This document shows, piece by piece, positions 8,501-45,197 of a DNA stretch of 64,000 bases (positions are counted from its first letter, which is position 1; the number at the start of each line of letters is the position of its first letter). Made by a program: the position numbers and the translations under genes. The notes beneath the pieces were generated by a model that saw only the letters and a list, made by a program, of their open reading frames with translations, was not told where the DNA came from and searched no databases. The DNA lies in the IMG/VR virus record IMGVR_UViG_3300017991_000003, positions 96,001 to 160,000 of that record. One strand, 5' to 3'. This DNA is from a virus.

Positions 8501-8981
8501 TGACGTGGCGGCAGCTGGTGGTGGGCAGGCCACGCCTTTCGAGTGGGCGCATCGGACGTTCCTCAAACGAGAGGCCACGAGCTTGGGGCAGTTCCTCGAG
8601 GATCACAAGCTCGAGCTCGTGACGCAGTTTGCCGACCGACCCACCACCAAGGAGTTCTATCAGATGCGTCCGGTCTCAGGATCGCAGACGACAACCGGAG
8701 CTGGGCTGGTATTCGACGATAGCCTCTTCAGTAAGCTGGTGGATGAGAAGAAGATGACCAACCCTGCATCCACTGTGGTTAGTGATGTTCTTGAGCAGGT
8801 TCTTCCTGGACCCTTCAACGCGGTGGCCGCCTCCGCGGTAGACGCGGCTTCAAGCGATCCATTGATCCAGGAGGCTCGAGAGCAGGCCACCAACAAGTAC
8901 CTGACCACTCAAGCACGGCAGGAGTTGATCCTGTCCTATGCCCGCAAGCACTTCGGCGACCGAGGTTTCGATGGCACGTGA
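5502..8981 (+). CDS. very large hypothetical protein (1159 aa); possible structural protein
   Basis: ORF track; 3.5-kb uninterrupted frame; no catalytic motif recognised. Confidence 0.65.
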   Translation: MTAETRAGLLASQWKIFLDGVEVPHHGFSMVMSQDQVSEVMLSLEPDKILLELRPQTMVHIFAKDRFPDPAPGQEDEEGGVQFAKTYTSDEDELKDTWHLFWEGVAAGRTHQKSKGNRSIQVRARALVESLERTPAFMMGMGGIEYSSIASGSRLPATVAGVIEGGGPSSVDTLSLFTLADLFTNDGETGSDVPGRDSATPRFAERLIRLITYLSSYNGVLRQHVVRGRLLNKIASIPDSILEGILERSVGLSLLGDMQNRITSRSSVLDIIRQVMSYGFYHLVQVPMPYRPSKQPEMGSMIPTLTGKQDEEQATAHQIPYEYYRNDYVFVPETYYALPPPCNFVFPDEMADLSIGREFQSEPTRHLVQDPHLASFVGNFFYWLAPEDIIRKAREGAGDDVTSANLFAMASTFGRSINVSGATSPYAYPDSADLESGSVRSLLGAVSDLELEKGIVPSFGQNRFEALAAAAYLSRTIPRTEDQATAQSIEDFANPENAAYADLMAAVANYQLQLMRYRRQGQVSMLGHRWIIPGLPTIIFDSDISYFGQVVSTTFVVNSDGQESTTLQLDRTRPVPKMEIEEIRAALEGLSTKLQELQTQKSKVADQALGQTISSALSGPLASQTTQYGGLGAKIEQTQSALQNWNTYIGGDTVDLVTTTGAPIQETLTIEGTQFDGTGLTTYFQDLSTEAAEIQAGLDELLVDGAAVAKALNTGEIAVGGSAFSTTLTKGDQTIYAAGNVSPAYLAYLFLDVPVLVDTTGQITAAKAALGDGFSVSGLKSALGSIVNGGASSDVFTGGEAPNTVAGALAVLTVAATYYELATAAIVEWLTIQKDIADSGENLDFLDLPPSTQAAADQSYKDQYQTIVDTLTNEIIEDGQKVLEDFDTRLDWPAPPAFFSEDLIATEKLDDLYQTSFGCKPFYTGPYTATATNETVAAIRASLTELDLGELETESGLSMQDRLEYYLEYLSGVSALNNVYPILEGQEELTDDVAPPPSWHDVAAAGGGQATPFEWAHRTFLKREATSLGQFLEDHKLELVTQFADRPTTKEFYQMRPVSGSQTTTGAGLVFDDSLFSKLVDEKKMTNPASTVVSDVLEQVLPGPFNAVAASAVDAASSDPLIQEAREQATNKYLTTQARQELILSYARKHFGDRGFDGT

Positions 8982-9711
8982 TACGACTGATCGGCCGAGT
9001 AAGGCCATCCGAGACGCCCGGAAGGATACCGATCTAGGTCTGGTAGAGCGGGCGCAGAAGGGCGACAAGGAGGCGCTGAACCGGCTGATCCGTAGCCACA
9101 TGGATCTGATCCAGATGAAGGCCCGCGGGTTCCGTAACGCCCCCATCCCAATCGCGGCGATCGAGGGTGAGGGTATGCGGCTTCTGGCTTTGGCGGTTAC
9201 CAAGTTCGACCCGTCCCAGGGTGTGGCCTTCCGCACGTTCCTCGACAACTACCTGCGCGGGCTCTACCGCTACGTCAACAGCAACAAGCGCGTGGACCGG
9301 GCGCCGGAGCACAGGCACCTGCGCTTCCACCGGTACGAGGCGGTCAAGGGCCTCCTGCGGGTGGAGCATAGTCGAGAGCCCACGGTGGCCGAGCTCTCCG
9401 ATGCGTTGGGCTGGAGCCCTACGGATGTGAAGCAGATGGACCGGATGATGTCCCAGCGTAGCCTGGCGGGCAGCGGCCTCGAGAACGTCAAGGCACTGGA
9501 CCAAGCGCACAGCCGGTACCAGGAGTCGGTTGAGCTGGCGTACGCGGGGTGGACCAAGCAGCAGCAGGCTGTCTACGATCTCAGCATGGGCGCGCACGGT
9601 AAGCAGCGCCTATCATCTGTGCCGGCCATCGCCCGCACCCTTGGGATCACGGCCGACAAGGTCTACAAGATCAAGCGGGAGCTGGCCCAGGAGCTTGGTA
9701 GTTCCCTATGA
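8971..9711 (+). CDS. sigma-70 family RNA polymerase sigma factor (phage-encoded)
   Basis: internal ATG at 8971 (GAGG 8 nt upstream) preferred over ORF-track start 8938; region-2-like LVERAQKGDKEALNRLIRSHMDLI...GMRLLALAVTKFDPSQGVAFRTFLDNYLRG and region-4-like HTH VPAIARTLGITADKVYKIKRELAQEL. Confidence 0.65.
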   Translation: MARDTTDRPSKAIRDARKDTDLGLVERAQKGDKEALNRLIRSHMDLIQMKARGFRNAPIPIAAIEGEGMRLLALAVTKFDPSQGVAFRTFLDNYLRGLYRYVNSNKRVDRAPEHRHLRFHRYEAVKGLLRVEHSREPTVAELSDALGWSPTDVKQMDRMMSQRSLAGSGLENVKALDQAHSRYQESVELAYAGWTKQQQAVYDLSMGAHGKQRLSSVPAIARTLGITADKVYKIKRELAQELGSSL

Positions 9712-35492: not shown

Positions 35493-35821
35493 AGGTGGTC
35501 GGGGTTCGGGACGGTGTTGGTGAGGAGGATGTGCATCCAGGTACGTAGGGACTGCCAGCAGGGGTCGATGTGCTTCCCTTGCTGTCTATCCCACGTCGCC
35601 AGGGCGTGGAGCGTGTTCATCAGATTCATGGGAGGGCCCGGCAGGTACTCATCATCTTCGAGATGCTTGGGGCGCGCCCCCTCGACTAGGGCGTCGTAGC
35701 CCTTCTCGGTCACGAAGGTGATTTCTTGGAGGGCTACTCCCTCCCAGGTCTCGCCTCCGAAGTCGACCTGGACCGGGATGATCGGCGTACCCGGCTCGAG
35801 GTTTTGAAAGGTGAGGCTCAT
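35489..35821 (-). CDS. hypothetical protein (about 110 aa)
   Basis: ATG 35821 in ATGA overlap (ORF-track start 35827). Confidence 0.45.
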   Translation of the reverse strand: MSLTFQNLEPGTPIIPVQVDFGGETWEGVALQEITFVTEKGYDALVEGARPKHLEDDEYLPGPPMNLMNTLHALATWDRQQGKHIDPCWQSLRTWMHILLTNTVPNPDHL

Positions 35822-36357
35822 ACCCACTTCTCCTCGATGAGCTTACGGAGGGCCTTCAGGCACATCCGCTGCCGACCGGCGGTCATACGCATCTTCGTGA
35901 ATCGGTGACTATCGATCAACCGATCAACAAGGATCAGGGCGAGGCCCTTGTTCTCGTCGCCCGCTTGAACAGGGATCGACATCTTCTTGGGCTTCTGCGC
36001 CTTCTTACGCCCTTTCTTGAGGGCCTTCACCGCAGCGGGCTCCGAGGCGTAGCGCATGGCGTGCTTGATGACCGGCCACTCGTCCGGGTGAGCTCCGACT
36101 TGCTGAGCCAGGCGTTTACCAAGCTCGGTCAGCTCGCCACGGTCCCGGCCCACCGTACGCATCAGGCCCATGTTCTTGAGCTCGGCCTTGTAGGTTCCGA
36201 CGGTCGACGCCTTGAGCAGCGTCTTACCAGTCCCGCGTGGGAACCGGCGTGTGATCTGAACGCAAGGCCATCGCTTGACCTGCTGCTGGTAGTGGTAGTA
36301 GAAGGCTAGCAGGTCCTGCTGCCGCTTGCTCAGCTCTCGGATTGTTTCGACAAGCAT
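35818..36357 (-). CDS. hypothetical basic protein, possibly DNA-binding (179 aa)
   Basis: ORF track; K/R-rich; promoter-like motif 33 bp upstream. Confidence 0.5.
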   Translation of the reverse strand: MLVETIRELSKRQQDLLAFYYHYQQQVKRWPCVQITRRFPRGTGKTLLKASTVGTYKAELKNMGLMRTVGRDRGELTELGKRLAQQVGAHPDEWPVIKHAMRYASEPAAVKALKKGRKKAQKPKKMSIPVQAGDENKGLALILVDRLIDSHRFTKMRMTAGRQRMCLKALRKLIEEKWV

Positions 36358-36389
36358 GGGTAGGTGGTGGGGTAGAGGTGATCGACATG

Positions 36390-36400
36390 AGACTTATGCC
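36390..36400 (-). promoter_or_regulatory. promoter-like motif copy (AGACTTATGCC)
   Basis: 33 bp upstream of ATG 36357; terminator of the tRNA unit lies just beyond. Confidence 0.5.
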
Positions 36401-36411
36401 ACAGTCCCTGG

Positions 36412-36450
36412 TCTAAAAAGAGAGCCCAACCCGAGGGGGTTGAGCTCTCT
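36412..36450 (-). terminator. strong hairpin plus T-tract terminator ending the tRNA transcription unit
   Basis: 13-bp stem with one mismatch (GAGAGCCCAACCC / GGGTTGAGCTCTC), followed on minus strand by TTTTTAGAC. Confidence 0.6.
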
Positions 36451-37003
36451 GGAAGTGCCCGGGCCCGCCCCTTTCATCGCAGTCCAACGAGTGGGACAAG
36501 GGGGATGCCGTAAGGGCCCGGGCTTGTAGGTGCGGAGCCGTGCCAGGATCACGGCCCCGCGGTGCTGTGGAAGTAGCTTGGCCCCCCAAGGAGGTGGGAT
36601 GAGCCGCCGTAGCTACGATGAGGCTCGCAGTCGGGCATGGTGCTACCCGGCCAACAGCGTGGCGATACGCCGAGACCCGGATCGCCGCCGGATAAGGTGG
36701 CCCCCGTCGTGACGTGCTCAGCTCACGCTCGAGGGGTTGGAAGACCTGCCATCTAGGATCAGTGGGATCCCCATCCCTTTGCACTCCTCGGAGAGTGTGC
36801 CGCTCCTGCGGCTGATGTGATGGCAGGTGGAAGACACCCACAGGTAGCAAGAACCGGCCTGGATGACCTCTTCGTTGCCCTAGGACCGGGGTCAGAGCCT
36901 TCCGGGCGCGCCTGTGGGTGATTGGGAAAGCCGAGCACGTCATCAACGCCGCTTGTGCGTCTGCTTGGTTGGTGGAGACGTGTGACGCTGCTCGGCTTTT
37001 GTA

Positions 37004-37090
37004 TGGTGCAGGAAGGGGGACTCGAACCCCCACGCCCGGGTGGGCACGTGGACCTAAACCACGGGCGTCTACCGATTCCGCCACTCCTGC
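37004..37090 (-). tRNA. tRNA-Leu (anticodon TAG)
   Basis: cloverleaf read by hand on minus strand: acceptor GCAGGAG/CTTCCTGC, anticodon loop TTTAGGT, long variable arm, T-arm GGGGGTTCGAGTCCCCC, encoded CCA. Confidence 0.8.
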
Positions 37091-37164
37091 ATGTAAAGGC
37101 ATCGATGACCCGTGGGAGAGTTTCCCCACTCTGTGTTGAGCCCACAGATCATCGATGTGATTGA

Positions 37165-37250
37165 TGGTGCGGGAGGAGGGACTCGAACCCTCACGCCCGA
37201 AGGCAGTGGATTTTGAATCCACCGTGTCTACCGATTCCAACCACCCCCGC
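37165..37250 (-). tRNA. tRNA-Leu (anticodon CAA)
   Basis: acceptor GCGGGGG/CTCCCGC, anticodon loop TTCAAAA, long variable arm, T-arm GAGGGTTCGAGTCCCTC, encoded CCA. Confidence 0.8.
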
Positions 37251-37504
37251 AGAGGGAGTGCCCCGCCGGCCGGAGCCGACGGGGCGAGTGCCTGTCTTTC
37301 CAGACTGTCCGCCCCGTTCGTATCATGCGCTAGGGGCTCTCGACAGTTCACTACGCCGCCATGCGGACGTCGGTGTTGGCATTTGAAAGCCAGAAGGTAC
37401 AGACGCCACCGGGCAACTATTCTCTGCTCGTAACTATACCCGCGAGCACGTCGGGTTGAAAGGTGGGCTGCCGAGGACGCGCCTCGACAGCCCGTGGGGG
37501 ATCA

Positions 37505-38125
37505 TCAGAAGTCGGGACGCAGCGTGTCTGCCGCGATCAACGTCAACTCCGGAGCGGACGGAGCTCCGGTCACGACAGCCTGGGGATCCATCTGCGCCAC
37601 GGAGTGCAGCTCGTGCGTCTCCATGAGTCTAAGTAGCGCAAAGAATCCGTAGGCGCGCAGCTCGTCCTCTTCTGAGTCGGAGCGCGGCGCGTGCCTGATG
37701 AGGGCCCCCGGGACGAGGTCTGCGTCGGACAGCACCACCCAGTGATCTGTCCAGACAATCGGCTCCAGTTGAGGAACCAGCTGCGAAGCCACCAGGTCGG
37801 CTAGCCCTTCACTCAGCGGGAAGGGACGCTGAGGAGCGCACAGGTGCGTAAGCTCATGTGCGATCACGAAGCGCTGCCGGTACGGCGGCTGATCAAGCCA
37901 GTTCGGATGGAGCACGAGGTAGACCTCGTCCGCGGCATGGGCCACCAGAGCAAGCCTGTCGATCTCACTCGACACGCACACCTGGGGGACCACACCTCGG
38001 TCATGCCCGATCATCTGCACCACCTGTGGACGCAGTTCATCGAGCAGACCCTCAGCACGCTCGACGGCTGGGTGAGCGCTGGCGCAGGCAGCCAGCGGCA
38101 GGCAGGAGATGATCAAGGACTTCAC
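37505..38125 (-). CDS. putative lipoprotein with HExxH motif (possible secreted zinc metallopeptidase-like)
   Basis: GTG start in GTGA overlap; signal peptide MKSLIISCLPLAAC (lipobox LAAC); FVIAHELTHL. Confidence 0.5.
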   Translation of the reverse strand: MKSLIISCLPLAACASAHPAVERAEGLLDELRPQVVQMIGHDRGVVPQVCVSSEIDRLALVAHAADEVYLVLHPNWLDQPPYRQRFVIAHELTHLCAPQRPFPLSEGLADLVASQLVPQLEPIVWTDHWVVLSDADLVPGALIRHAPRSDSEEDELRAYGFFALLRLMETHELHSVAQMDPQAVVTGAPSAPELTLIAADTLRPDF

Positions 38126-39024: not shown

Positions 39025-39109
39025 GGCGTCTCCTGTTGGGTTGGGTGGGAACAGTGGAGGCTCGAAGCCTCGGGGTATCAGTAGACTCGTGACACAAACC
39101 CGATAAGGT

Positions 39110-39625: not shown

Positions 39626-40141
39626 ATGGAAACGACAACGACAGAGGCCCGCCCTGAGCTACAGCTTCGGCCGTTGGCCGGGCGGGTGATGATTCGAGTG
39701 GACGAGGCCCCCACGATGAGCGCAGGTACGCGAGGCCGTCAGGTCTATCTACCCGAGAGCGTCCAGAAGGAGGAGAAGGCGAACTACCGGTTCGGTACGG
39801 TCGTGGCCCTAGGGGACCCCGCGCTGCATCCGAAGACCGGCAGGCCGATCCCGTGGGCTGTGCATGTAGGCACCAAGGTCTGCTTCCAGTTCGGGGCTGA
39901 CCTTACAGGTGAGCGAGAGCTCCAGTACACAGGAGGCGTGGCCCATGCGGTGTGCTTTGCTGAGGATCTGATTTACGCCATCGAGGATGATTATGAGATT
40001 CAGCCGACTCCCGTATGCCCCAACAGCGTAGGGGTTGCGCTACGCCGCGCTCTGATGAACGACGACTGGCTGACCGAGGAGCAGGTTGACACCCTGAGCC
40101 GGCGGCTCGCGTGCACGATTGCCGGGGTTGTGCCCGCGTGA
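39626..40141 (+). CDS. GroES/Cpn10-like protein with C-terminal extension
   Basis: LRPLAGRVMIRVDE...SAG...GTVVALGD...VHVGTKVCF pattern resembles co-chaperonin GroES; internal ATG 39626. Confidence 0.45.
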   Translation: METTTTEARPELQLRPLAGRVMIRVDEAPTMSAGTRGRQVYLPESVQKEEKANYRFGTVVALGDPALHPKTGRPIPWAVHVGTKVCFQFGADLTGERELQYTGGVAHAVCFAEDLIYAIEDDYEIQPTPVCPNSVGVALRRALMNDDWLTEEQVDTLSRRLACTIAGVVPA

Positions 40142-40776
40142 GAATCGGCCGCACTTCCGATCTAGCGCCCTGGCCGCTCTTCATCGGCTTCTACACCCCG
40201 GAGTACGAGGAAGAGGCCGGGGAGCTTCGTAAGACCCTGGACGCGTTCGGGCTGCCACACGAGATCGAACCCGTCGAGTCCACGGGTAGCTGGTGGCTCA
40301 ACACGCAGATCAAGGCTCAGATCATTTTGCTCAAGCTACGGGATCACCTGGGTCGACCGCTGGTCTACCTGGACTGCGATGCCCGAGTCAGGCAGGCTCC
40401 TACCTTGTTCCGCTCCCTGCATCACCAGTGCGACTTCGCGGCTCACTTCCGACCGGATCGACGATTCGAATGCGGTCGAGAGCTTTTGAGCGGGACGCTG
40501 TACTTCAGCGGCTCGCCGGCTTGCCAGGGCCTGGTACAGGCTTGGATCGATGAGAATGAGCGCCAGGCTGCGATCAAGAGTAGCAACAAGCTCCGCCTCA
40601 TGGATCAGAGAACCTTGCAGACGGTCCTGGCTAAGGAGATCGAGGAGTACGGTCTTATGTTCACCGAGCTCCCTGCTACCTACGTTCAGATCTTCGACAT
40701 CATGCGCGACGCCGGCGACCCGGTGATCGAGCATCTCCAGGCCAGCCGCCGATTGAGGAACAAGGTTGGTCACTAG
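40138..40776 (+). CDS. hypothetical protein, possible glycosyltransferase-like
   Basis: GTG start in GTGA overlap; YLDCDARV acidic motif; assignment weak. Confidence 0.4.
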   Translation: MRIGRTSDLAPWPLFIGFYTPEYEEEAGELRKTLDAFGLPHEIEPVESTGSWWLNTQIKAQIILLKLRDHLGRPLVYLDCDARVRQAPTLFRSLHHQCDFAAHFRPDRRFECGRELLSGTLYFSGSPACQGLVQAWIDENERQAAIKSSNKLRLMDQRTLQTVLAKEIEEYGLMFTELPATYVQIFDIMRDAGDPVIEHLQASRRLRNKVGH

Positions 40777-40788
40777 ACTCATGACTCA

Positions 40789-41547
40789 ATGAAGCGACTG
40801 ATCTACCAGGTCTGCGTTGGCCCGCCTGACCCGCTCTACGACAAGTGCACGCGCACTGTTGCGGCCTACTGCAAGCGCCTCGGCATCGCGTACATCAAGC
40901 AGACCGAGCCGGTCCTGAAGATCCGCCCGAACCCCGCTACGAGCGGGAGAAGCCAGAACGCTGTTGAACGACTAGGGTACCTGCCGATCTTCGAGAAGGA
41001 GAACGCACTCGCCCACCTTGGTGAGTTCGATCAGGTGGCCATTATCGACTCCGATATCTGGATCAGGGAGGAGGCACCCAACATCTTCGAGGAGCTCGAG
41101 GAGGGTGTTGACTTCATGGGGGTGGTCGAGCGAACCGCACCCATCACGCCGCAGTATGATCGGAAGCTCAAGAGCTACGCGCGCGGCCAGTACGGTCGTC
41201 CGGACTTCCCCTTCATGAACATGGGGCTCATGCTCATGAACAAGAGCCTGCGCCGCTTCTGCCCCGAGCCTCCTCGGGAGTTTCTGGCGCGTCCGGAGTT
41301 CCAGGCCTTCGTGGATGGGCGGGGGGCCTACAAGTGGAGCACGGACCAGACCCTGCTCAACACCTGGTTGACCAGCGATCCCGACATGGTCGTGAAGCCT
41401 CTCGACTGGCGGTGGAACGCCCTGTACGGGGCGCTGGTGCCCGGGTCGATAGAACAGGCCCACTTCGTTCACTTCTTCCTCAAGAACCACCTGGATAGCC
41501 AGGATCCCGACAAGCTCCTTCAGACACAAGGCCGCAAACGCGTTTAG
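40789..41547 (+). CDS. putative glycosyltransferase (nucleotide-diphospho-sugar transferase, DxD type)
   Basis: AIIDSDIW DxD-like motif; ATG 40789. Confidence 0.45.
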   Translation: MKRLIYQVCVGPPDPLYDKCTRTVAAYCKRLGIAYIKQTEPVLKIRPNPATSGRSQNAVERLGYLPIFEKENALAHLGEFDQVAIIDSDIWIREEAPNIFEELEEGVDFMGVVERTAPITPQYDRKLKSYARGQYGRPDFPFMNMGLMLMNKSLRRFCPEPPREFLARPEFQAFVDGRGAYKWSTDQTLLNTWLTSDPDMVVKPLDWRWNALYGALVPGSIEQAHFVHFFLKNHLDSQDPDKLLQTQGRKRV

Positions 41548-41551
41548 CCCC

Positions 41552-42229
41552 ATGAGCAAAGTACCACCCCTATTCATTCACGTACCGAAGACCGGTGGCA
41601 TGTCCGTGCACCATGGACTAGGCCGCCTGATCCGAGAGACGCTGTCTCGAGACAAGCTGAAGTCTCTGGACTACGCGGCGACGATCGAGCAGCACATGCG
41701 CTCCAAGGGTGAGCCTACTCCGGGGTACCGTCATGCCCGGTGGCGTGACGTCAAGCCGGGGTGGCGGGATAAGGGCCGCTGTTTCACGGTGCTGCGCAAT
41801 CCGTGGTCCCGTGTGGTCAGTCGCTACCGGTTCGGACTCAATACCTGGGCGACGCGTCCCTACAACTACACGAACTTCGAGGAGTTTCTTGCGGAGCATG
41901 AGGAGTGGGGCCAAGAGCCGTACTACTGGCACCGCGCCGTGCGGGGCTGGTACCCTGCGGTGGATCACGTGACGGACGGCCAGGGCAACCTCAAGTGCGA
42001 TGTTCTGCGTACGGAGCACCTGGACGATGACATCTGGGCCTACTTCGGGAAGCGGCTACCTCCGCGCCGACGCAACGTCACGCGCGGCGATGCCGTGGAC
42101 TACAAGACCTTCTACGACGATCGAACCATCCAGCTGGTGGCAGACTGGTATGCCGAGGACATTGAGATGTTCGGCTTTGACTTCGACACGCCGGCGACGA
42201 AGAACCTGTGGGAGGGCCTAGGAGCATGA
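41552..42229 (+). CDS. sulfotransferase family protein
   Basis: FIHVPKTGGMSV (HIPKTGG-type PAPS 5'-phosphosulfate binding motif) and RNPWSRVVSRYRF. Confidence 0.6.
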   Translation: MSKVPPLFIHVPKTGGMSVHHGLGRLIRETLSRDKLKSLDYAATIEQHMRSKGEPTPGYRHARWRDVKPGWRDKGRCFTVLRNPWSRVVSRYRFGLNTWATRPYNYTNFEEFLAEHEEWGQEPYYWHRAVRGWYPAVDHVTDGQGNLKCDVLRTEHLDDDIWAYFGKRLPPRRRNVTRGDAVDYKTFYDDRTIQLVADWYAEDIEMFGFDFDTPATKNLWEGLGA

Positions 42230-42783
42230 TGGTTGGCAAGAACCAGGGCAGTCTCCTGGTTGTGCAGCAGATCCCAGAGAACAGCGTGGGTGCCGAGCTC
42301 GGCGTCTGGCGCGGGGACACATCAGCCCGCTTCCTAGCTAGCGGTAAGATCAAGCACTTGCACCTGGTGGATGCTTGGAGTCCCGACCCTTACTACGGCA
42401 TCGAAGGCTACCGAGAGAAGTACGCCAAGCTGGTCGGATCGGGTGATCTCGACGCCTTTCGCGCCTACTACGACGCGGTCCTAGCCGGTGTCCGCAGGCG
42501 GTTTCAAGGCCAGCCCGTTACGATCCACCAAACCACTGTGCACGAGTTTCTGACTGAGCCCCCGGAGGATCTCGACTGGGTCTACGTGGACGCGAGTCAC
42601 GAGTACCTCGACGTCCTTGATGATCTCGAGCGCTGTGCCCGTCACGTGGATCTGATCTTTGGGGATGACTACGGCAACAAGCCAGGGGTGGTTCGCGCTG
42701 TCGACGAGTTTGATCGGACGCACCCCGAGTGGCACCTCCAGGTCCTGGGCAAGAACCAGTACCGCCTCGATAGGAAGGTCTGA
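42226..42783 (+). CDS. class I SAM-dependent methyltransferase (TylF/O-methyltransferase-like)
   Basis: ELGVWRGDTS and VYVDASHEY; ATG 42226 in ATGA overlap. Confidence 0.5.
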   Translation: MMVGKNQGSLLVVQQIPENSVGAELGVWRGDTSARFLASGKIKHLHLVDAWSPDPYYGIEGYREKYAKLVGSGDLDAFRAYYDAVLAGVRRRFQGQPVTIHQTTVHEFLTEPPEDLDWVYVDASHEYLDVLDDLERCARHVDLIFGDDYGNKPGVVRAVDEFDRTHPEWHLQVLGKNQYRLDRKV

Positions 42784-43289
42784 TGCACCCATCAAGCAAG
42801 GCCAATATGAGGGAGGCCTGGGCACTCGTTCCCGACCCCCACCGCGTCGGGGACGTCCTTGATGTAGGCGGCGGTCGTGGCGGGGAATACCAGGAAATCT
42901 GGAAAGGGTGTGCTAGCTACCGAACGGCTGACATTGCAGGTGACTGCGACCTCTTGATGCCTGGTGAGTACGAGATTCCACTTCCGGATGATTCGATCGA
43001 TGTGGTGATTAGCGGCCAGACACTGGAGCATGTCCGCAACCCTTTCCGCCTCGTCACCGAGATGCGCCGGGTACTGAAGCCCGGTGGCTACGTGGTGATC
43101 ATCGCCCCGTCCGCGGGCCCGGCCCATTTCAAGATCGACTGCTGGCGCTTCGTCCGGGATGCGTTCCGGGCCATCGCCCACGAGTGCGATCTAGAGGTTG
43201 TTGCCGATTGGATCTATACCGGGGACTCTGGCCGAGGTCCTAACAAGCAGTGGAACGATCACACCTTCGTGGGGAGGAAGCCCGAGTGA
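42783..43289 (+). CDS. class I SAM-dependent methyltransferase
   Basis: VLDVGGGRGG (motif I), VISGQTLEHV, LKPGGYVVI. Confidence 0.6.
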   Translation: MHPSSKANMREAWALVPDPHRVGDVLDVGGGRGGEYQEIWKGCASYRTADIAGDCDLLMPGEYEIPLPDDSIDVVISGQTLEHVRNPFRLVTEMRRVLKPGGYVVIIAPSAGPAHFKIDCWRFVRDAFRAIAHECDLEVVADWIYTGDSGRGPNKQWNDHTFVGRKPE

Positions 43290-43987
43290 ATGCGTATGCC
43301 ATCACGCTCTTCGGTAACGAGACCAGCACCCAGAGCGTTGACAAGCTCTTTGAGTCCCATGTGGCGCTTGAGCAGCATTTCGATCTGATCCGCTTCCCGG
43401 CCATCACTCCTGACCAGAACCAGGAGATCATGGCGGAGGAGCGCCTGGTGTGGACCTATCCCTGGGAAAACAACCGGCTGGATGGGATCACTGGCTTGAA
43501 GCTGCATCCCTACGCCACACGTGATCGGGGTGCGCGGATCGCCTGCTTCCTATCGCACTACCACCTCTGGAAGCTGGCCTGCGAGACTGGGGAGTGGGTG
43601 ATGATCCTGGAGGACGACACGGTATTCACCAAGCACCTAGACCTAGACAGCCTGCCTTACCGTGAGTGGAGCGCCGTCGGCATCAACAACCCACTAGGGG
43701 CGACGCGTCGAGCGCCTGTGTTCCACGACAAGGTCGTGGCGCAGCGTCCGACTCCGATCATCGAGACCCCGTGGGTTGATGATGAAGTCAGGACCCCGCA
43801 GGGGCTGGCCGGCCACAGTGCCTACATGATCAGCCCTGAGCTGGCTAAGGACCTGATCCATCGAGCCCGTCATGCGGGTTGCTGGCCTAACGACGCATTG
43901 ATGTGCAAGCAGCTGTACCCTGGGAAGCTCGGGGTCACAACCGAGTTCTACACCCGAGTCCAGCAGACCCCGAGTACTCTGGCATGA
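43286..43987 (+). CDS. glycosyltransferase family 25-like
   Basis: GTG start (GTGA overlap); ACFLSHYHLWK and ILEDDTVF motifs. Confidence 0.5.
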   Translation: MNAYAITLFGNETSTQSVDKLFESHVALEQHFDLIRFPAITPDQNQEIMAEERLVWTYPWENNRLDGITGLKLHPYATRDRGARIACFLSHYHLWKLACETGEWVMILEDDTVFTKHLDLDSLPYREWSAVGINNPLGATRRAPVFHDKVVAQRPTPIIETPWVDDEVRTPQGLAGHSAYMISPELAKDLIHRARHAGCWPNDALMCKQLYPGKLGVTTEFYTRVQQTPSTLA

Positions 43988-44646
43988 AGGCGCGCGTCAT
44001 CACCCTGATCCACAACAAGCGATCTGTTCAGGTAGCGAATCGGTGCATTGAGAGCGCTGCAAGGTTCGGCGTTGAGGTTGATATCTTCCCGGCCATCAGG
44101 GCGGCGGATAACCCCAAGGCCCTGATGTTCGAGCGGAAGTTCTCGATGAAGGGGTTTGAGGACAATGAGTACTCGCGTCTTGAGCCGTGCCTGGCTACGT
44201 TCCTCTCCCACTCTCGCCTATGGGAGCTTGCGGTGCTGCTAAAGGAGGCAGTCCTGATCCTCGAGCACGACGCTGTGTTCCAGGCTCCGCTCCCGGAGAT
44301 GATCGAGGAGCGGGTGAAGATGCTCTGCAATCTGGGCAAACCGAGCTTCGGCTCCTTCAAGACCCCGAAAGAGGGGCTAGGCCCGTTCGTGTCCAAGCCC
44401 GGCGGCTATCTAGGCGGCGCCCACGCGTACCTGGTCCAGCCTGAGGCCGCTGAGGTGATGTTGGAGAAGGCCAAGACAGAGGCGGAGCCGGCCGATGTGT
44501 TCATCCAGAAGAAGCGCTTCCCCTGGATGACTGAGTACTACCCGTGGCCGGTGATCTGCGATGACTCCTTCTCCACCATCCAGAAGCCCGCAGGTTGCAC
44601 GGCCAAGCACAACAAGGTCGAGATCATCGATCAGGATGAATCGTGA
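43984..44646 (+). CDS. glycosyltransferase family 25-like (paralogue of previous)
   Basis: ATG 43984 in ATGA overlap; ATFLSHSRLWE and ILEHDAVF. Confidence 0.5.
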   Translation: MKARVITLIHNKRSVQVANRCIESAARFGVEVDIFPAIRAADNPKALMFERKFSMKGFEDNEYSRLEPCLATFLSHSRLWELAVLLKEAVLILEHDAVFQAPLPEMIEERVKMLCNLGKPSFGSFKTPKEGLGPFVSKPGGYLGGAHAYLVQPEAAEVMLEKAKTEAEPADVFIQKKRFPWMTEYYPWPVICDDSFSTIQKPAGCTAKHNKVEIIDQDES

Positions 44647-44879
44647 GGCTGCTAAGTCGCGCCTACTGGGCGGAGGTCGTCGAGTGCGACTACTGCCCTA
44701 ATCCTGAAGAACCGCCCGCGCTTGTTTGTGGTGTCTGCGGCGATACGGGGAAAGCCCCGCGATGGCGTCGGGCTTGGCGCGATGTCTTCCGGTGTAGTGC
44801 TCTGGTGGGCCATCCTGATAGGAGCCCTGCTTGTGGGGGCGTTGGCTCAGTAAAAACAACGCGTTGTTTTGTCGGGTAG
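44643..44879 (+). CDS. questionable Cys-rich small ORF
   Basis: ORF track; reads through an AT-rich palindrome; may be non-coding. Confidence 0.2.
   Translation: MRLLSRAYWAEVVECDYCPNPEEPPALVCGVCGDTGKAPRWRRAWRDVFRCSALVGHPDRSPACGGVGSVKTTRCFVG
44853..44870. repeat. AT-rich perfect palindrome AAAACAACGCGTTGTTTT
   Basis: stands out in GC-rich context; convergent junction between the glycan island and the HTH operon. Confidence 0.7.
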
Positions 44880-44885
44880 GTAGCT

Positions 44886-44901
44886 AAAACAACGTGTTGT
44901 T
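44886..44901. repeat. AT-rich near-palindrome AAAACAACGTGTTGTT
   Basis: second copy 33 bp from the first. Confidence 0.65.
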
Positions 44902-44939
44902 AGGCACCCCAGCGCCCGAGGGCGCCGGGGGCCTGGTTC

Positions 44940-45197
44940 TCAGGGGCGGAGCCGCAGCCCCCGAGAGGTGACCAGCACCTTACGGTGCGGGACCTTGGGG
45001 AGCTTCGGCAGGGGCGGGAGGTCGACGTCGGTGTCGACGACCGCCTCCACCAGGGACTCGCCGTCCGCCCCGCTGATGTGGAGGCGGCGGTGCTCGCTGT
45101 TCTCGGTCACGTGGACCGAGCCCAGCGGGGTTTTGACCTTGGCGATGGTTCGCTCGGGGGCGATCCACGCCAAGATCTCGTCGAAGAACCCCATCAC
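44940..45197 (-). CDS. hypothetical protein (85 aa)
   Basis: ORF track; last gene of a 5-gene overlapping operon. Confidence 0.4.
   Translation of the reverse strand: MMGFFDEILAWIAPERTIAKVKTPLGSVHVTENSEHRRLHISGADGESLVEAVVDTDVDLPPLPKLPKVPHRKVLVTSRGLRLRP

Follow-up and report, generated by a model that had tools for sequence, protein, structure and literature searches.

How a phage uses several hundred nucleotides (nt) that follow its transfer RNA (tRNA) genes and carry no obvious gene is the question raised by one locus of the virus record IMGVR_UViG_3300017991_000003, of which a 64,000-nt stretch, here called the window, was analyzed. On the minus strand of the window, tRNA-Leu(CAA) at 37165-37250(-) and tRNA-Leu(UAG) at 37004-37090(-) are followed by a trailer of 553 nt (36451-37003(-)) without a convincing minus-strand open reading frame (ORF), which comes to ∼590 nt (36414-37003) once the intrinsic terminator at 36415-36450(-) is counted. 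A first-pass annotation had regarded a non-coding RNA as possible in 36451-37003, and the analysis strengthens this view: the trailer is a real, selected, and structured non-coding RNA with two conserved modules, lying outside every Rfam family against which it was matched. The region is probably the 3′ part of a phage tRNA unit that encodes a modular structured non-coding RNA of ∼590 nt, stable and acting in trans. As such it is a candidate for a new phage RNA, and its carriers form a small group of deeply novel phages; confidence in anything past a functional structured RNA is modest.

A DUF932-like gene 3 kb away from the locus leads to three related clades (62-65% identity) in which the gene order around the locus is conserved, namely clade B (L007, L008, and L012), clade C (L013-15), and clade D (L018). 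Clade B has ∼800 nt after a tRNA-Thr(tgt) at the same place, and nhmmer joins this stretch to the window trailer (E = 1e-4). Clade C lacks a tRNA and has a short structured element directly 3′ of a protein gene, and clade D has the terminator only. The full element is available for comparison as only two independent sequences (window and clade B), with one probable minimal homologue (clade C). In both phages with the full element, a non-conserved 5′ part starts within a few nt of the tRNA CCA, and the 3′ end of the element is a hairpin followed by CUUUUUAG.

Selection on the trailer can be read against the divergence of the neighboring genes. Fourfold synonymous sites in the DUF932 genes are 36.9% identical between the window and clade B, vs. 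37.3% for random sequence, so that synonymous sites are saturated and neutral DNA between the two phages should not align. Despite this saturation, two domains of the trailer, D3 and D5 (36451-36533), are 60 and 66% identical between the window and L007, with invariant blocks of 8-14 nt. The invariant runs include CACCUGCC, GCCGC-NGGA-GCGGC, ACGGCAUC, and GCACCUA, and the unpaired motifs ACGGCAUC, GCACCUA(U)CAA, and ACYUCCA are also kept. Purifying selection at the nucleotide level is thereby shown for D3 and for a 3′ module of ∼145 nt (36414-36558(-)), which comprises the hairpin P4, the helix P5 within D5, and the terminator hairpin. The remaining parts differ in this respect: the 5′ part (174 nt here and 397 nt in clade B) shares k-mers at the chance level, as does the middle (209 nt in the window and 198 nt in clade B), where shared 6-mers and 7-mers give P = 0.93 and 0.84.

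The trailer is also structured, most strongly on the tRNA strand. As a whole it folds more stably than its shuffles (z = -6.07 for the tRNA strand vs. -4.09 for its complement), and the 3′ module reaches z = -6.5 in the window and -4.5 in L007. Within the module, P4 (36534-36558(-)) is a 9-bp hairpin directly 5′ of D5; clade B has a hairpin of the same position and size with a wholly different sequence, and seven of the nine pairs are changed on both sides in the model-fitted alignment. The D5 core (36451-36533(-)) consists of GCACCUACAA, then the 10-bp helix P5 (arms 36514-36523/36457-36466), and then ACUUCCA. P5 encloses the invariant internal loop ACGGCAUC and an inner bulged hairpin, and the same arrangement appears in independent folds of both phages (D5 z = -3.0 in the window and -6.2 in L007). 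All 15 pairs of P5 and P5a form in both phages, five of them doubly changed. When D5 is taken together with the terminator, 23/23 pairs form in both, with eight double changes vs. 0-1 in controls slid by 1-3 columns. An unbiased mapping of predicted helices gives a similar result, as D5 keeps 8/12 changed pairs while a coding control of equal divergence keeps 40/172. These comparisons show that compensatory changes, read on the tRNA-sense strand, have preserved the helices of the 3′ module.

A covariance model trained on the 145-nt 3′ module of the window alone, with its own predicted structure, finds L007 as its top match at full length (38.1 bits, E ∼3e-6), whereas a sequence-only model scores 16.1 bits, so that structure adds 22 bits for this held-out phage. 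The best unrelated score of the module model in ∼310 kb of related phage DNA is 19 bits. With 34.1 bits, the structured model also matches the syntenic site of clade C, where the sequence-only model has no match, and this register, with ACCUACA as the 3′ flank of P5, replaced one set by eye in which ACCUACA had been taken as the 5′ flank. A three-clade alignment is 97% paired vs. 39-48% in slid controls and contains 26 doubly changed pairs vs. 5-8; it was fitted to the covariance model and is to be read with caution. A two-sequence covariance model of D5 found no further copies, not even that of clade C, which was matched only by the structure-rich model built on the single sequence. Elsewhere in the window, 44806-44964, in a hairpin-rich intergenic region (44646-44940), gives the best non-self score of the module model on both strands (17-18.5 bits, not significant).

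The second conserved module, D3 (36743-36829(-)), is a cloverleaf-shaped four-way junction of 87 nt with a clade B copy at L007 5819-5906. Its closing helix, ACCUGCCAUC/GAUGGCAGGU, surrounds three hairpins, the first of which is the invariant GCCGC-AGGA-GCGGC, and this architecture is recovered in independent folds of both phages (window z = -4.9, L007 z = -3.1). Of the 15 pairs that make up the closing helix and the first hairpin, 13 are invariant, one is compensatory, and one is broken. In D3, D5, and the terminator of both phages, G-U pairs and the more negative z favor the tRNA-sense strand. The other parts of the trailer are not conserved in the relative. P1 (36927-36999(-)) is a long imperfect hairpin that starts 4 nt past the CCA of tRNA-Leu(UAG), with perfect 11-bp arms (I13) and z = -4.2 to -4.3; P2 (36834-36920(-)) is a domain closed by a perfect 10-bp helix (I20, arms 36911-36920/36835-36844) with z = -1.7; and the middle linker (36559-36742(-)), which contains CCACCUCCUU, has z = -1.6 and -0.4. 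Whole-element MAFFT alignments are unreliable beyond D3 and D5, and for this reason the middle pairs proposed by RNAalifold were not used. Two tertiary contacts were also dropped: a pseudoknot between AUGCCCG of the middle and the invariant ACGGCAU loop, as k-mers of the middle are shared at the chance level, and kissing loops (palindrome GAUC in the window hairpin and AGCU in L007), as the AGCU of L007 sits in a stem.

One short motif recurs along the RNA. CUUCCA occurs four times in 599 nt, vs. ∼0.07 expected from its frequency in the window, at 36828-36833, 36738-36743, 36568-36573, and 36450-36455 (all minus strand), that is, at both flanks of D3, in the linker ∼10 nt 5′ of P4, and at the 3′ flank of P5. 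Degenerate versions (CUUUCA, CCUUCG, and CCUCCA) stand at the junctions of D3 and P5 in clade B, and in clade C the P5-like helix is followed by CCUACA.

The strong terminator reported at 36412-36450 by the first-pass annotation is indeed present. This predicted terminator (hairpin I8, arms 36419-36432/36437-36450) has a G+C-rich 14-bp stem of 93% complementarity, a 4-nt CCUC loop, and directly thereafter the run UUUUU (36415-36419) on the transcribed strand, the first U of which doubles as the last stem pair; its fold has -25 kcal/mol and z = -6.3. A simple consensus terminator scan left it unlisted because the stem absorbs one U of the run. Outside the RNA, a promoter-like motif (GTGGCATAAGTCT, 36390-36402(-)) marks the boundary 33 nt upstream of the ATG at 36357, and its position just past the terminator means that the RNA closes one unit and a new unit begins. 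The motif has the 18-nt consensus GTGGCATRAGTCYnnTGR and is found in the window on the minus strand only, 25-50 nt upstream of start codons (ends at 482, 19434, 20970, 36402, 46258, and 63804; weaker at 39095 and 40787). It is kept at the syntenic site in all four clades (L007 6346, L013 8229, and L018 489) and is unlike sigma-70 or sigma-54 promoters; the phage-type sigma factor phrog_351 (8938-9711) could be its reader. A promoter scan found no promoter-like site within the trailer. Upstream of the tRNAs, a weak TTTCAA-17-TATAGT (37433-37461) was seen by eye and was uncalled by the scan tool, and in clade B the tRNA begins 12 nt past the preceding gene.

From this arrangement, a single transcript may be proposed that would run from a start upstream of tRNA-Leu(CAA), within 37251-37460, to the terminator at 36415-36450. 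RNase P together with 3′-end processing at the encoded CCA would free both tRNAs, and the downstream RNA would be left as a separate stable molecule, with P1 capping its 5′ end and the terminator its 3′ end. Such an RNA would act in trans via its conserved unpaired motifs (ACGGCAUC, GCACCUACAA, and CUUCCA), with a protein or a second RNA as its most likely binding partner. Comparison of the clades suggests that the tRNAs are interchangeable cargo, with two tRNA-Leu here, one tRNA-Thr in clade B, and none in clade C, and that the 3′ module is the constant part. The label of a tRNA trailer is therefore only partly apt, since the 3′ module follows another tRNA in clade B and no tRNA in clade C.

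The trailer might instead be a passive 3′ cassette, that is, a structured end that terminates transcription and protects the tRNA or upstream transcript against 3′ exonucleases, or serves as an insulator toward the next promoter, with no activity in trans. This explanation is rather unlikely, though several observations fit it: the 3′ module always ends a unit directly before the promoter-like motif, the clade C module follows a protein gene without a tRNA, most of the trailer is not conserved, and stacked hairpins suit a protective 3′ end. Protection requires stable hairpins only, yet ACGGCAUC, GCACCUA(U)CAA, and ACYUCCA have been kept at saturation. In addition, 3′ protection leaves unexplained why D3, at ∼210 nt upstream of the module, has stayed 60% identical and contains an invariant 14-nt hairpin. 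The conservation of unpaired nucleotides and of an internal junction that lies ∼300 nt away from the 3′ end is the reason why a stable RNA acting in trans is favored over the passive cassette.

Several points weigh against a single large RNA with a role in trans. P1, P2, and the middle, which together make up ∼60% of the 590 nt, are not conserved, and P2 and the middle are not significantly structured, so the element may amount to two small conserved modules set in a variable spacer. The case for D3 comes from conservation and shared architecture and not from covariation; in the unbiased mapping of window-predicted helices, it kept only 5/14 changed pairs. The covariation statistics are weak because the sequences are too few (two full and one probable minimal); covariation rests on two to three lineages, a number at which R-scape-type tests are impossible. 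In clade C, no U-run follows the hairpin that is aligned to the terminator, and the first hairpin of this clade's element may instead be the counterpart of a window hairpin at 37465-37493. Pattern scans of IMG/VR, Joint Genome Institute (JGI) metagenome contigs, and GTDB genomes gave no homologues, and the promoter, co-transcription, and processing are inferences. The window hairpin just mentioned, GGGCUGUCGAGG-CGCG-UCCUCGGCAGCCC (37465-37493(-)), is G+C-rich and stands directly 3′ of an M78-like peptidase gene. Its position is like that of the first hairpin in the clade C element, which makes it uncertain which window hairpin corresponds to the clade C “P4.”

A role of the locus at the DNA level, as operators, an origin, or a recombination site between the M78-like peptidase gene and the next gene, is very unlikely. 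The sequence GCCGC-NGGA-GCGGC is an invariant short palindrome of the type bound by dimeric regulators, and the surroundings look regulatory, with the weak M78/ImmA-like gene here and helix-turn-helix (HTH) and CI-repressor-like genes in the relatives. DNA sites of this kind would not account for the compensatory double changes in P5 and P5a, whose arms are 50-60 nt apart, or for the 22 bits by which the structured model beats the sequence-only one, and the G-U pairs and the stronger z on one strand indicate RNA pairing. The region also has no iterons and no AT-rich unwinding element.

The setting invites comparison with two families of large phage RNAs. GOLLD (Rfam RF01998) is a large non-coding RNA of phages and prophages, often located by tRNA islands, and tRNAs can lie inside the element; in the env-38 example, a tRNA-Met immediately precedes the GOLLD RNA, of which the 3′ region is conserved and the 5′ region varies. 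ROOL (Rfam RF03087), with a mean length of 581 nt, is found in phages and prophages near tRNAs, with which it is possibly co-transcribed, and its function is not known (PMC5737381). The present element resembles GOLLD in its phage location beside tRNAs and in its conserved 3′ and variable 5′ parts, and it resembles ROOL in its tRNA setting and in its size, nearly equal to the 590-nt trailer. An Rfam scan of the trailer, which had been proposed as a check of the first-pass annotation, matched no family: at E ≤ 10 with permissive filters, window 36300-37500 and L007 5300-6300 gave no family beyond tRNA, and neither a GOLLD nor a ROOL covariance model matched the window or the L007 element. Differences from GOLLD also include conservation of only two modules, which make up ∼230/590 nt, no evidence of pseudoknots or oligomer-forming loops, and a carrier that is a high-GC phage poor in Shine-Dalgarno (SD) sequences and not a phage of Lactobacillales or of marine origin. 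As for ROOL, covariation-supported junctions or pseudoknots along the whole length were not found here, only D3 and the 3′ module being conserved; the element has one four-way junction and one bulged long hairpin with a non-conserved linker between them. It is therefore most improbable that the trailer is a highly diverged GOLLD or ROOL member, despite the shared setting in a phage beside tRNAs, the length of 590-800 nt, and the conserved 3′ and variable 5′ parts, for conservation covers only ∼40% of the trailer, and the members of those families are ornate from end to end. No published description of the element came up in a literature search.

Two other classes of RNA share some of its features. 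Small RNAs (sRNAs) derived from 3′ ends, such as CpxQ and SroC in enterobacteria, use the same terminator as the transcript upstream. The 3′ module similarly includes the terminator of its unit and potential seed-like unpaired motifs, and in clade C it stands directly after a protein gene; however, at ∼145 nt it is larger and more structured than typical seed-type sRNAs and has no Rfam match. Theta ribozymes, which are minimal ribozymes resembling that of hepatitis delta virus (HDV), adjoin viral tRNA genes and have a proposed role in tRNA 3′ processing (bioRxiv 10.1101/2023.06.13.544163). The element is likewise a structured RNA immediately beside phage tRNAs, but it has no HDV-like or other Rfam match at E ≤ 10, the P1 that follows the CCA is not conserved, and it is ten times larger.

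Coding potential is lacking in the trailer, as the first-pass annotation had held for the minus strand over ∼550 nt. In both elements (window and L007), every one of the six frames has negative codon-usage log-odds, from -0.18 to -0.67 bits per codon, compared with +0.46 ± 0.14 in 68 comparison genes of the window, none of which is below 0. The G+C at the three codon positions of the trailer is 0.70/0.59/0.61 vs. ∼0.65/0.44/0.78 in genes. The only long minus-strand ORF (36413-37351, 312 codons) is spurious because its reading runs through both tRNAs. Public metagenome records nevertheless call hypothetical proteins over the RNA, one of 177 aa (L001 9412-9945, equal to window 36413-36946(-)) and one of 185 aa (L007 5498-6055). 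The 177-aa ORF has codon log-odds of -0.28 and found only itself among 1.84 billion representative proteins, and the called ORFs of the two phages have no real similarity to each other and no translated similarity, although nucleotide similarity is present; both annotations are gene-calling artefacts. A plus-strand ORF of 37 codons (36599-36712(+)), with AAGGAGGTG at 36588-36596 and 2 nt upstream of its ATG, exists as had been noticed, but it was rejected as a gene, with codon log-odds of -0.24, a place within the non-conserved middle, and an SD sequence atypical for the genome. Hence a protein-coding origin has almost nothing to recommend it, since the open 312-codon frame, the called 177- and 185-aa products, and the AAGGAGGTG before the plus-strand ATG are set against negative codon scores in every frame, codon-position GC unlike that of genes, a frame that crosses two tRNA genes, no translated similarity to clade B, no relatives among the proteins searched, and a genome in which most genes have no SD sequence.

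Translation signals in this genome are unusual. An SD-like 4-mer is missing in 38/68 predicted genes, and many leaders are C/A-rich and G-poor, for example CCCCACCACCUACCC-AUG, which suggests initiation independent of SD in the phage and its host. Such C/A-rich leaders are seen on the minus strand at the ATGs at 36357, 20918, 46198, 47868, and 60145. The plus-strand AAGGAGGTG reads CCACCUCCUU on the RNA strand (36588-36597(-)), a perfect anti-SD-like sequence identical to the anti-SD tail of 16S rRNA. Nearby, clade B has only CCCUCUUGG, and the resemblance of CCACCUCCUU to the anti-SD is probably a coincidence.

A more specific and speculative idea, which we hold with little confidence, is that the RNA would represent a new family of modular phage RNAs, would be released by tRNA processing and become abundant, and would act on the translation machinery, as a counterpart of GOLLD and ROOL for SD-poor, high-GC environmental phages. 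In a decoy version of this idea, which draws on motif resemblance, unpaired pyrimidine motifs (CUUCCA in its four copies, ACCUCCA of clade B, and CCACCUCCUU) might titrate SD-containing host mRNAs or a ribosome-associated factor, and the SD-less, C/A-rich leaders of the phage itself would escape.

The tRNA genes at the head of the unit are themselves ordinary. ARAGORN finds exactly two tRNAs in the whole 64-kb window, and the Rfam tRNA model agrees, with 46.0 bits for tRNA-Leu(CAA) and 49.4 bits for tRNA-Leu(UAG) (ARAGORN anticodon tag) against a threshold of 29; no other sequence of the window passes the threshold of any Rfam family. Both were correctly described at the outset as minus-strand tRNA-Leu genes (TAG and CAA anticodons) with long variable arms and encoded CCA. 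They have the cloverleaf, the Leu anticodon, the long variable arm (10-12-nt insertions in the Rfam alignment), the discriminator A73, and the encoded CCA of bacterial-type (type II) tRNA-Leu, and they end in ...GCA-CCA. The spacer between them (37091-37164(-)) is one long hairpin (I2, arms 37100-37116/37141-37157, 17 nt, 88% complementary) with a minimum free energy of -34.1 kcal/mol and z = -5.9.

The two tRNA-Leu had also been credited with compensating for rare codons, CUG among them, and here the codon counts lend this no support. CUG is the commonest Leu codon of the phage (38%), while CTA (8.7% of Leu codons) and TTG (8.6%) are level with other NNA codons. In a comparison with relatives that have no Leu tRNAs at the locus, CTA and TTG are not more frequent in the window phage, and compensation of Leu codons has no support within the family. 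In clade B, a tRNA-Thr(UGU) at L007 5346-5421 replaces the two tRNA-Leu, and ACA makes up 16.6% of Thr codons vs. 8.3% in the window phage (L007/L008 genes, P = 8e-5), so that in this clade the carried tRNA tracks codon usage. The locus thus resembles the tRNA sets by which phages supplement codon usage in having two intact type II tRNA-Leu in a large phage and, in clade B, a tRNA-Thr(UGU) with doubled ACA use, and it differs from them in that CTA and TTG are not above the relatives; codon supplementation is plausible for phage tRNAs generally and is without support for Leu here.

Searches for further relatives of the locus returned none. The flanking genes (the 179-aa product downstream and the M78-like product upstream) gave self-matches only among 5.8 billion proteins, and scans of viral contigs with both flanking proteins and with the DUF932 protein found no relatives. 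A pattern for the tRNA 3′ half in viral contigs hit five unrelated low-GC phages with tRNA arrays. Patterns built from the RNA blocks gave matches in viral contigs (IMG/VR), JGI metagenome contigs (76 loci), and GTDB genomes (78 loci), which were rejected as chance matches in GC-rich DNA, and the loci from these three sets have no nhmmer similarity to the element. More distant DUF932 phages (43% identity, L185 and L186) are not syntenic and have no large non-coding gap.

Judged by its sequence, the source is a large uncultivated phage without a close cultured relative. The window has a G+C content of 62% and encodes a phage-type exonuclease, a DUF932/phrog_1362 protein, ThyX, and a phage-type sigma factor, with most proteins having no family match. 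A JGI metagenome contig is 99.995% identical to the window, and genes of that phage occur on a contig of up to 193 kb. The nearest cultured phages share ≤31% identity in the DUF932 protein, and in blastn against cultured phages the tRNAs are the only matches.

The RNA locus is bracketed by two genes. Upstream, 37505-38125(-) encodes a weak M78/ImmA-like metallopeptidase with an HExxH motif (Pfam 21.4 bits, just below the 22-bit cut-off), and downstream, 35818-36357(-) encodes an ORFan of 179 aa starting at the ATG at 36357, the N-terminus of which resembles a LexA-type winged helix, an impression gained by eye only. Clade C has the pair adjacent (L013 7342-7836 and 8291-8812), HTH and CI-repressor-like genes are present in relatives near the locus, and the arrangement of the bracketing pair may form a regulatory switch region. 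A conserved block of modification-type genes also adjoins the locus (window 40111-44646(+), L001 1712-4806, and L007 1-1650), with two glycosyltransferase-25 genes, several methyltransferase genes, and one sulfotransferase-like gene, and may be a DNA or surface modification module. Clade C additionally carries a gene of the Acb2/Tad1-hairpin family (L013 14699-14950(-)), an anti-CBASS or anti-Thoeris sponge fold, and an AbiEi_4-like gene (L013 17066-17692(+)); neither kind was seen in the window.

To our knowledge, the large tRNA-linked phage RNAs such as GOLLD and ROOL are among the most striking bacterial RNAs lacking a known function, and all of them come from a few families. The annotation of hypothetical proteins over the RNA in two phage lineages is an error worth correcting. 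The clades also offer a natural experiment, in which a constant module occurs with two tRNA-Leu, with one tRNA-Thr, or with no tRNA, and which could separate the role of the RNA from that of the tRNAs. A third unrelated example, if true, would make the combination of tRNAs and a big structured RNA a recurring phage design.

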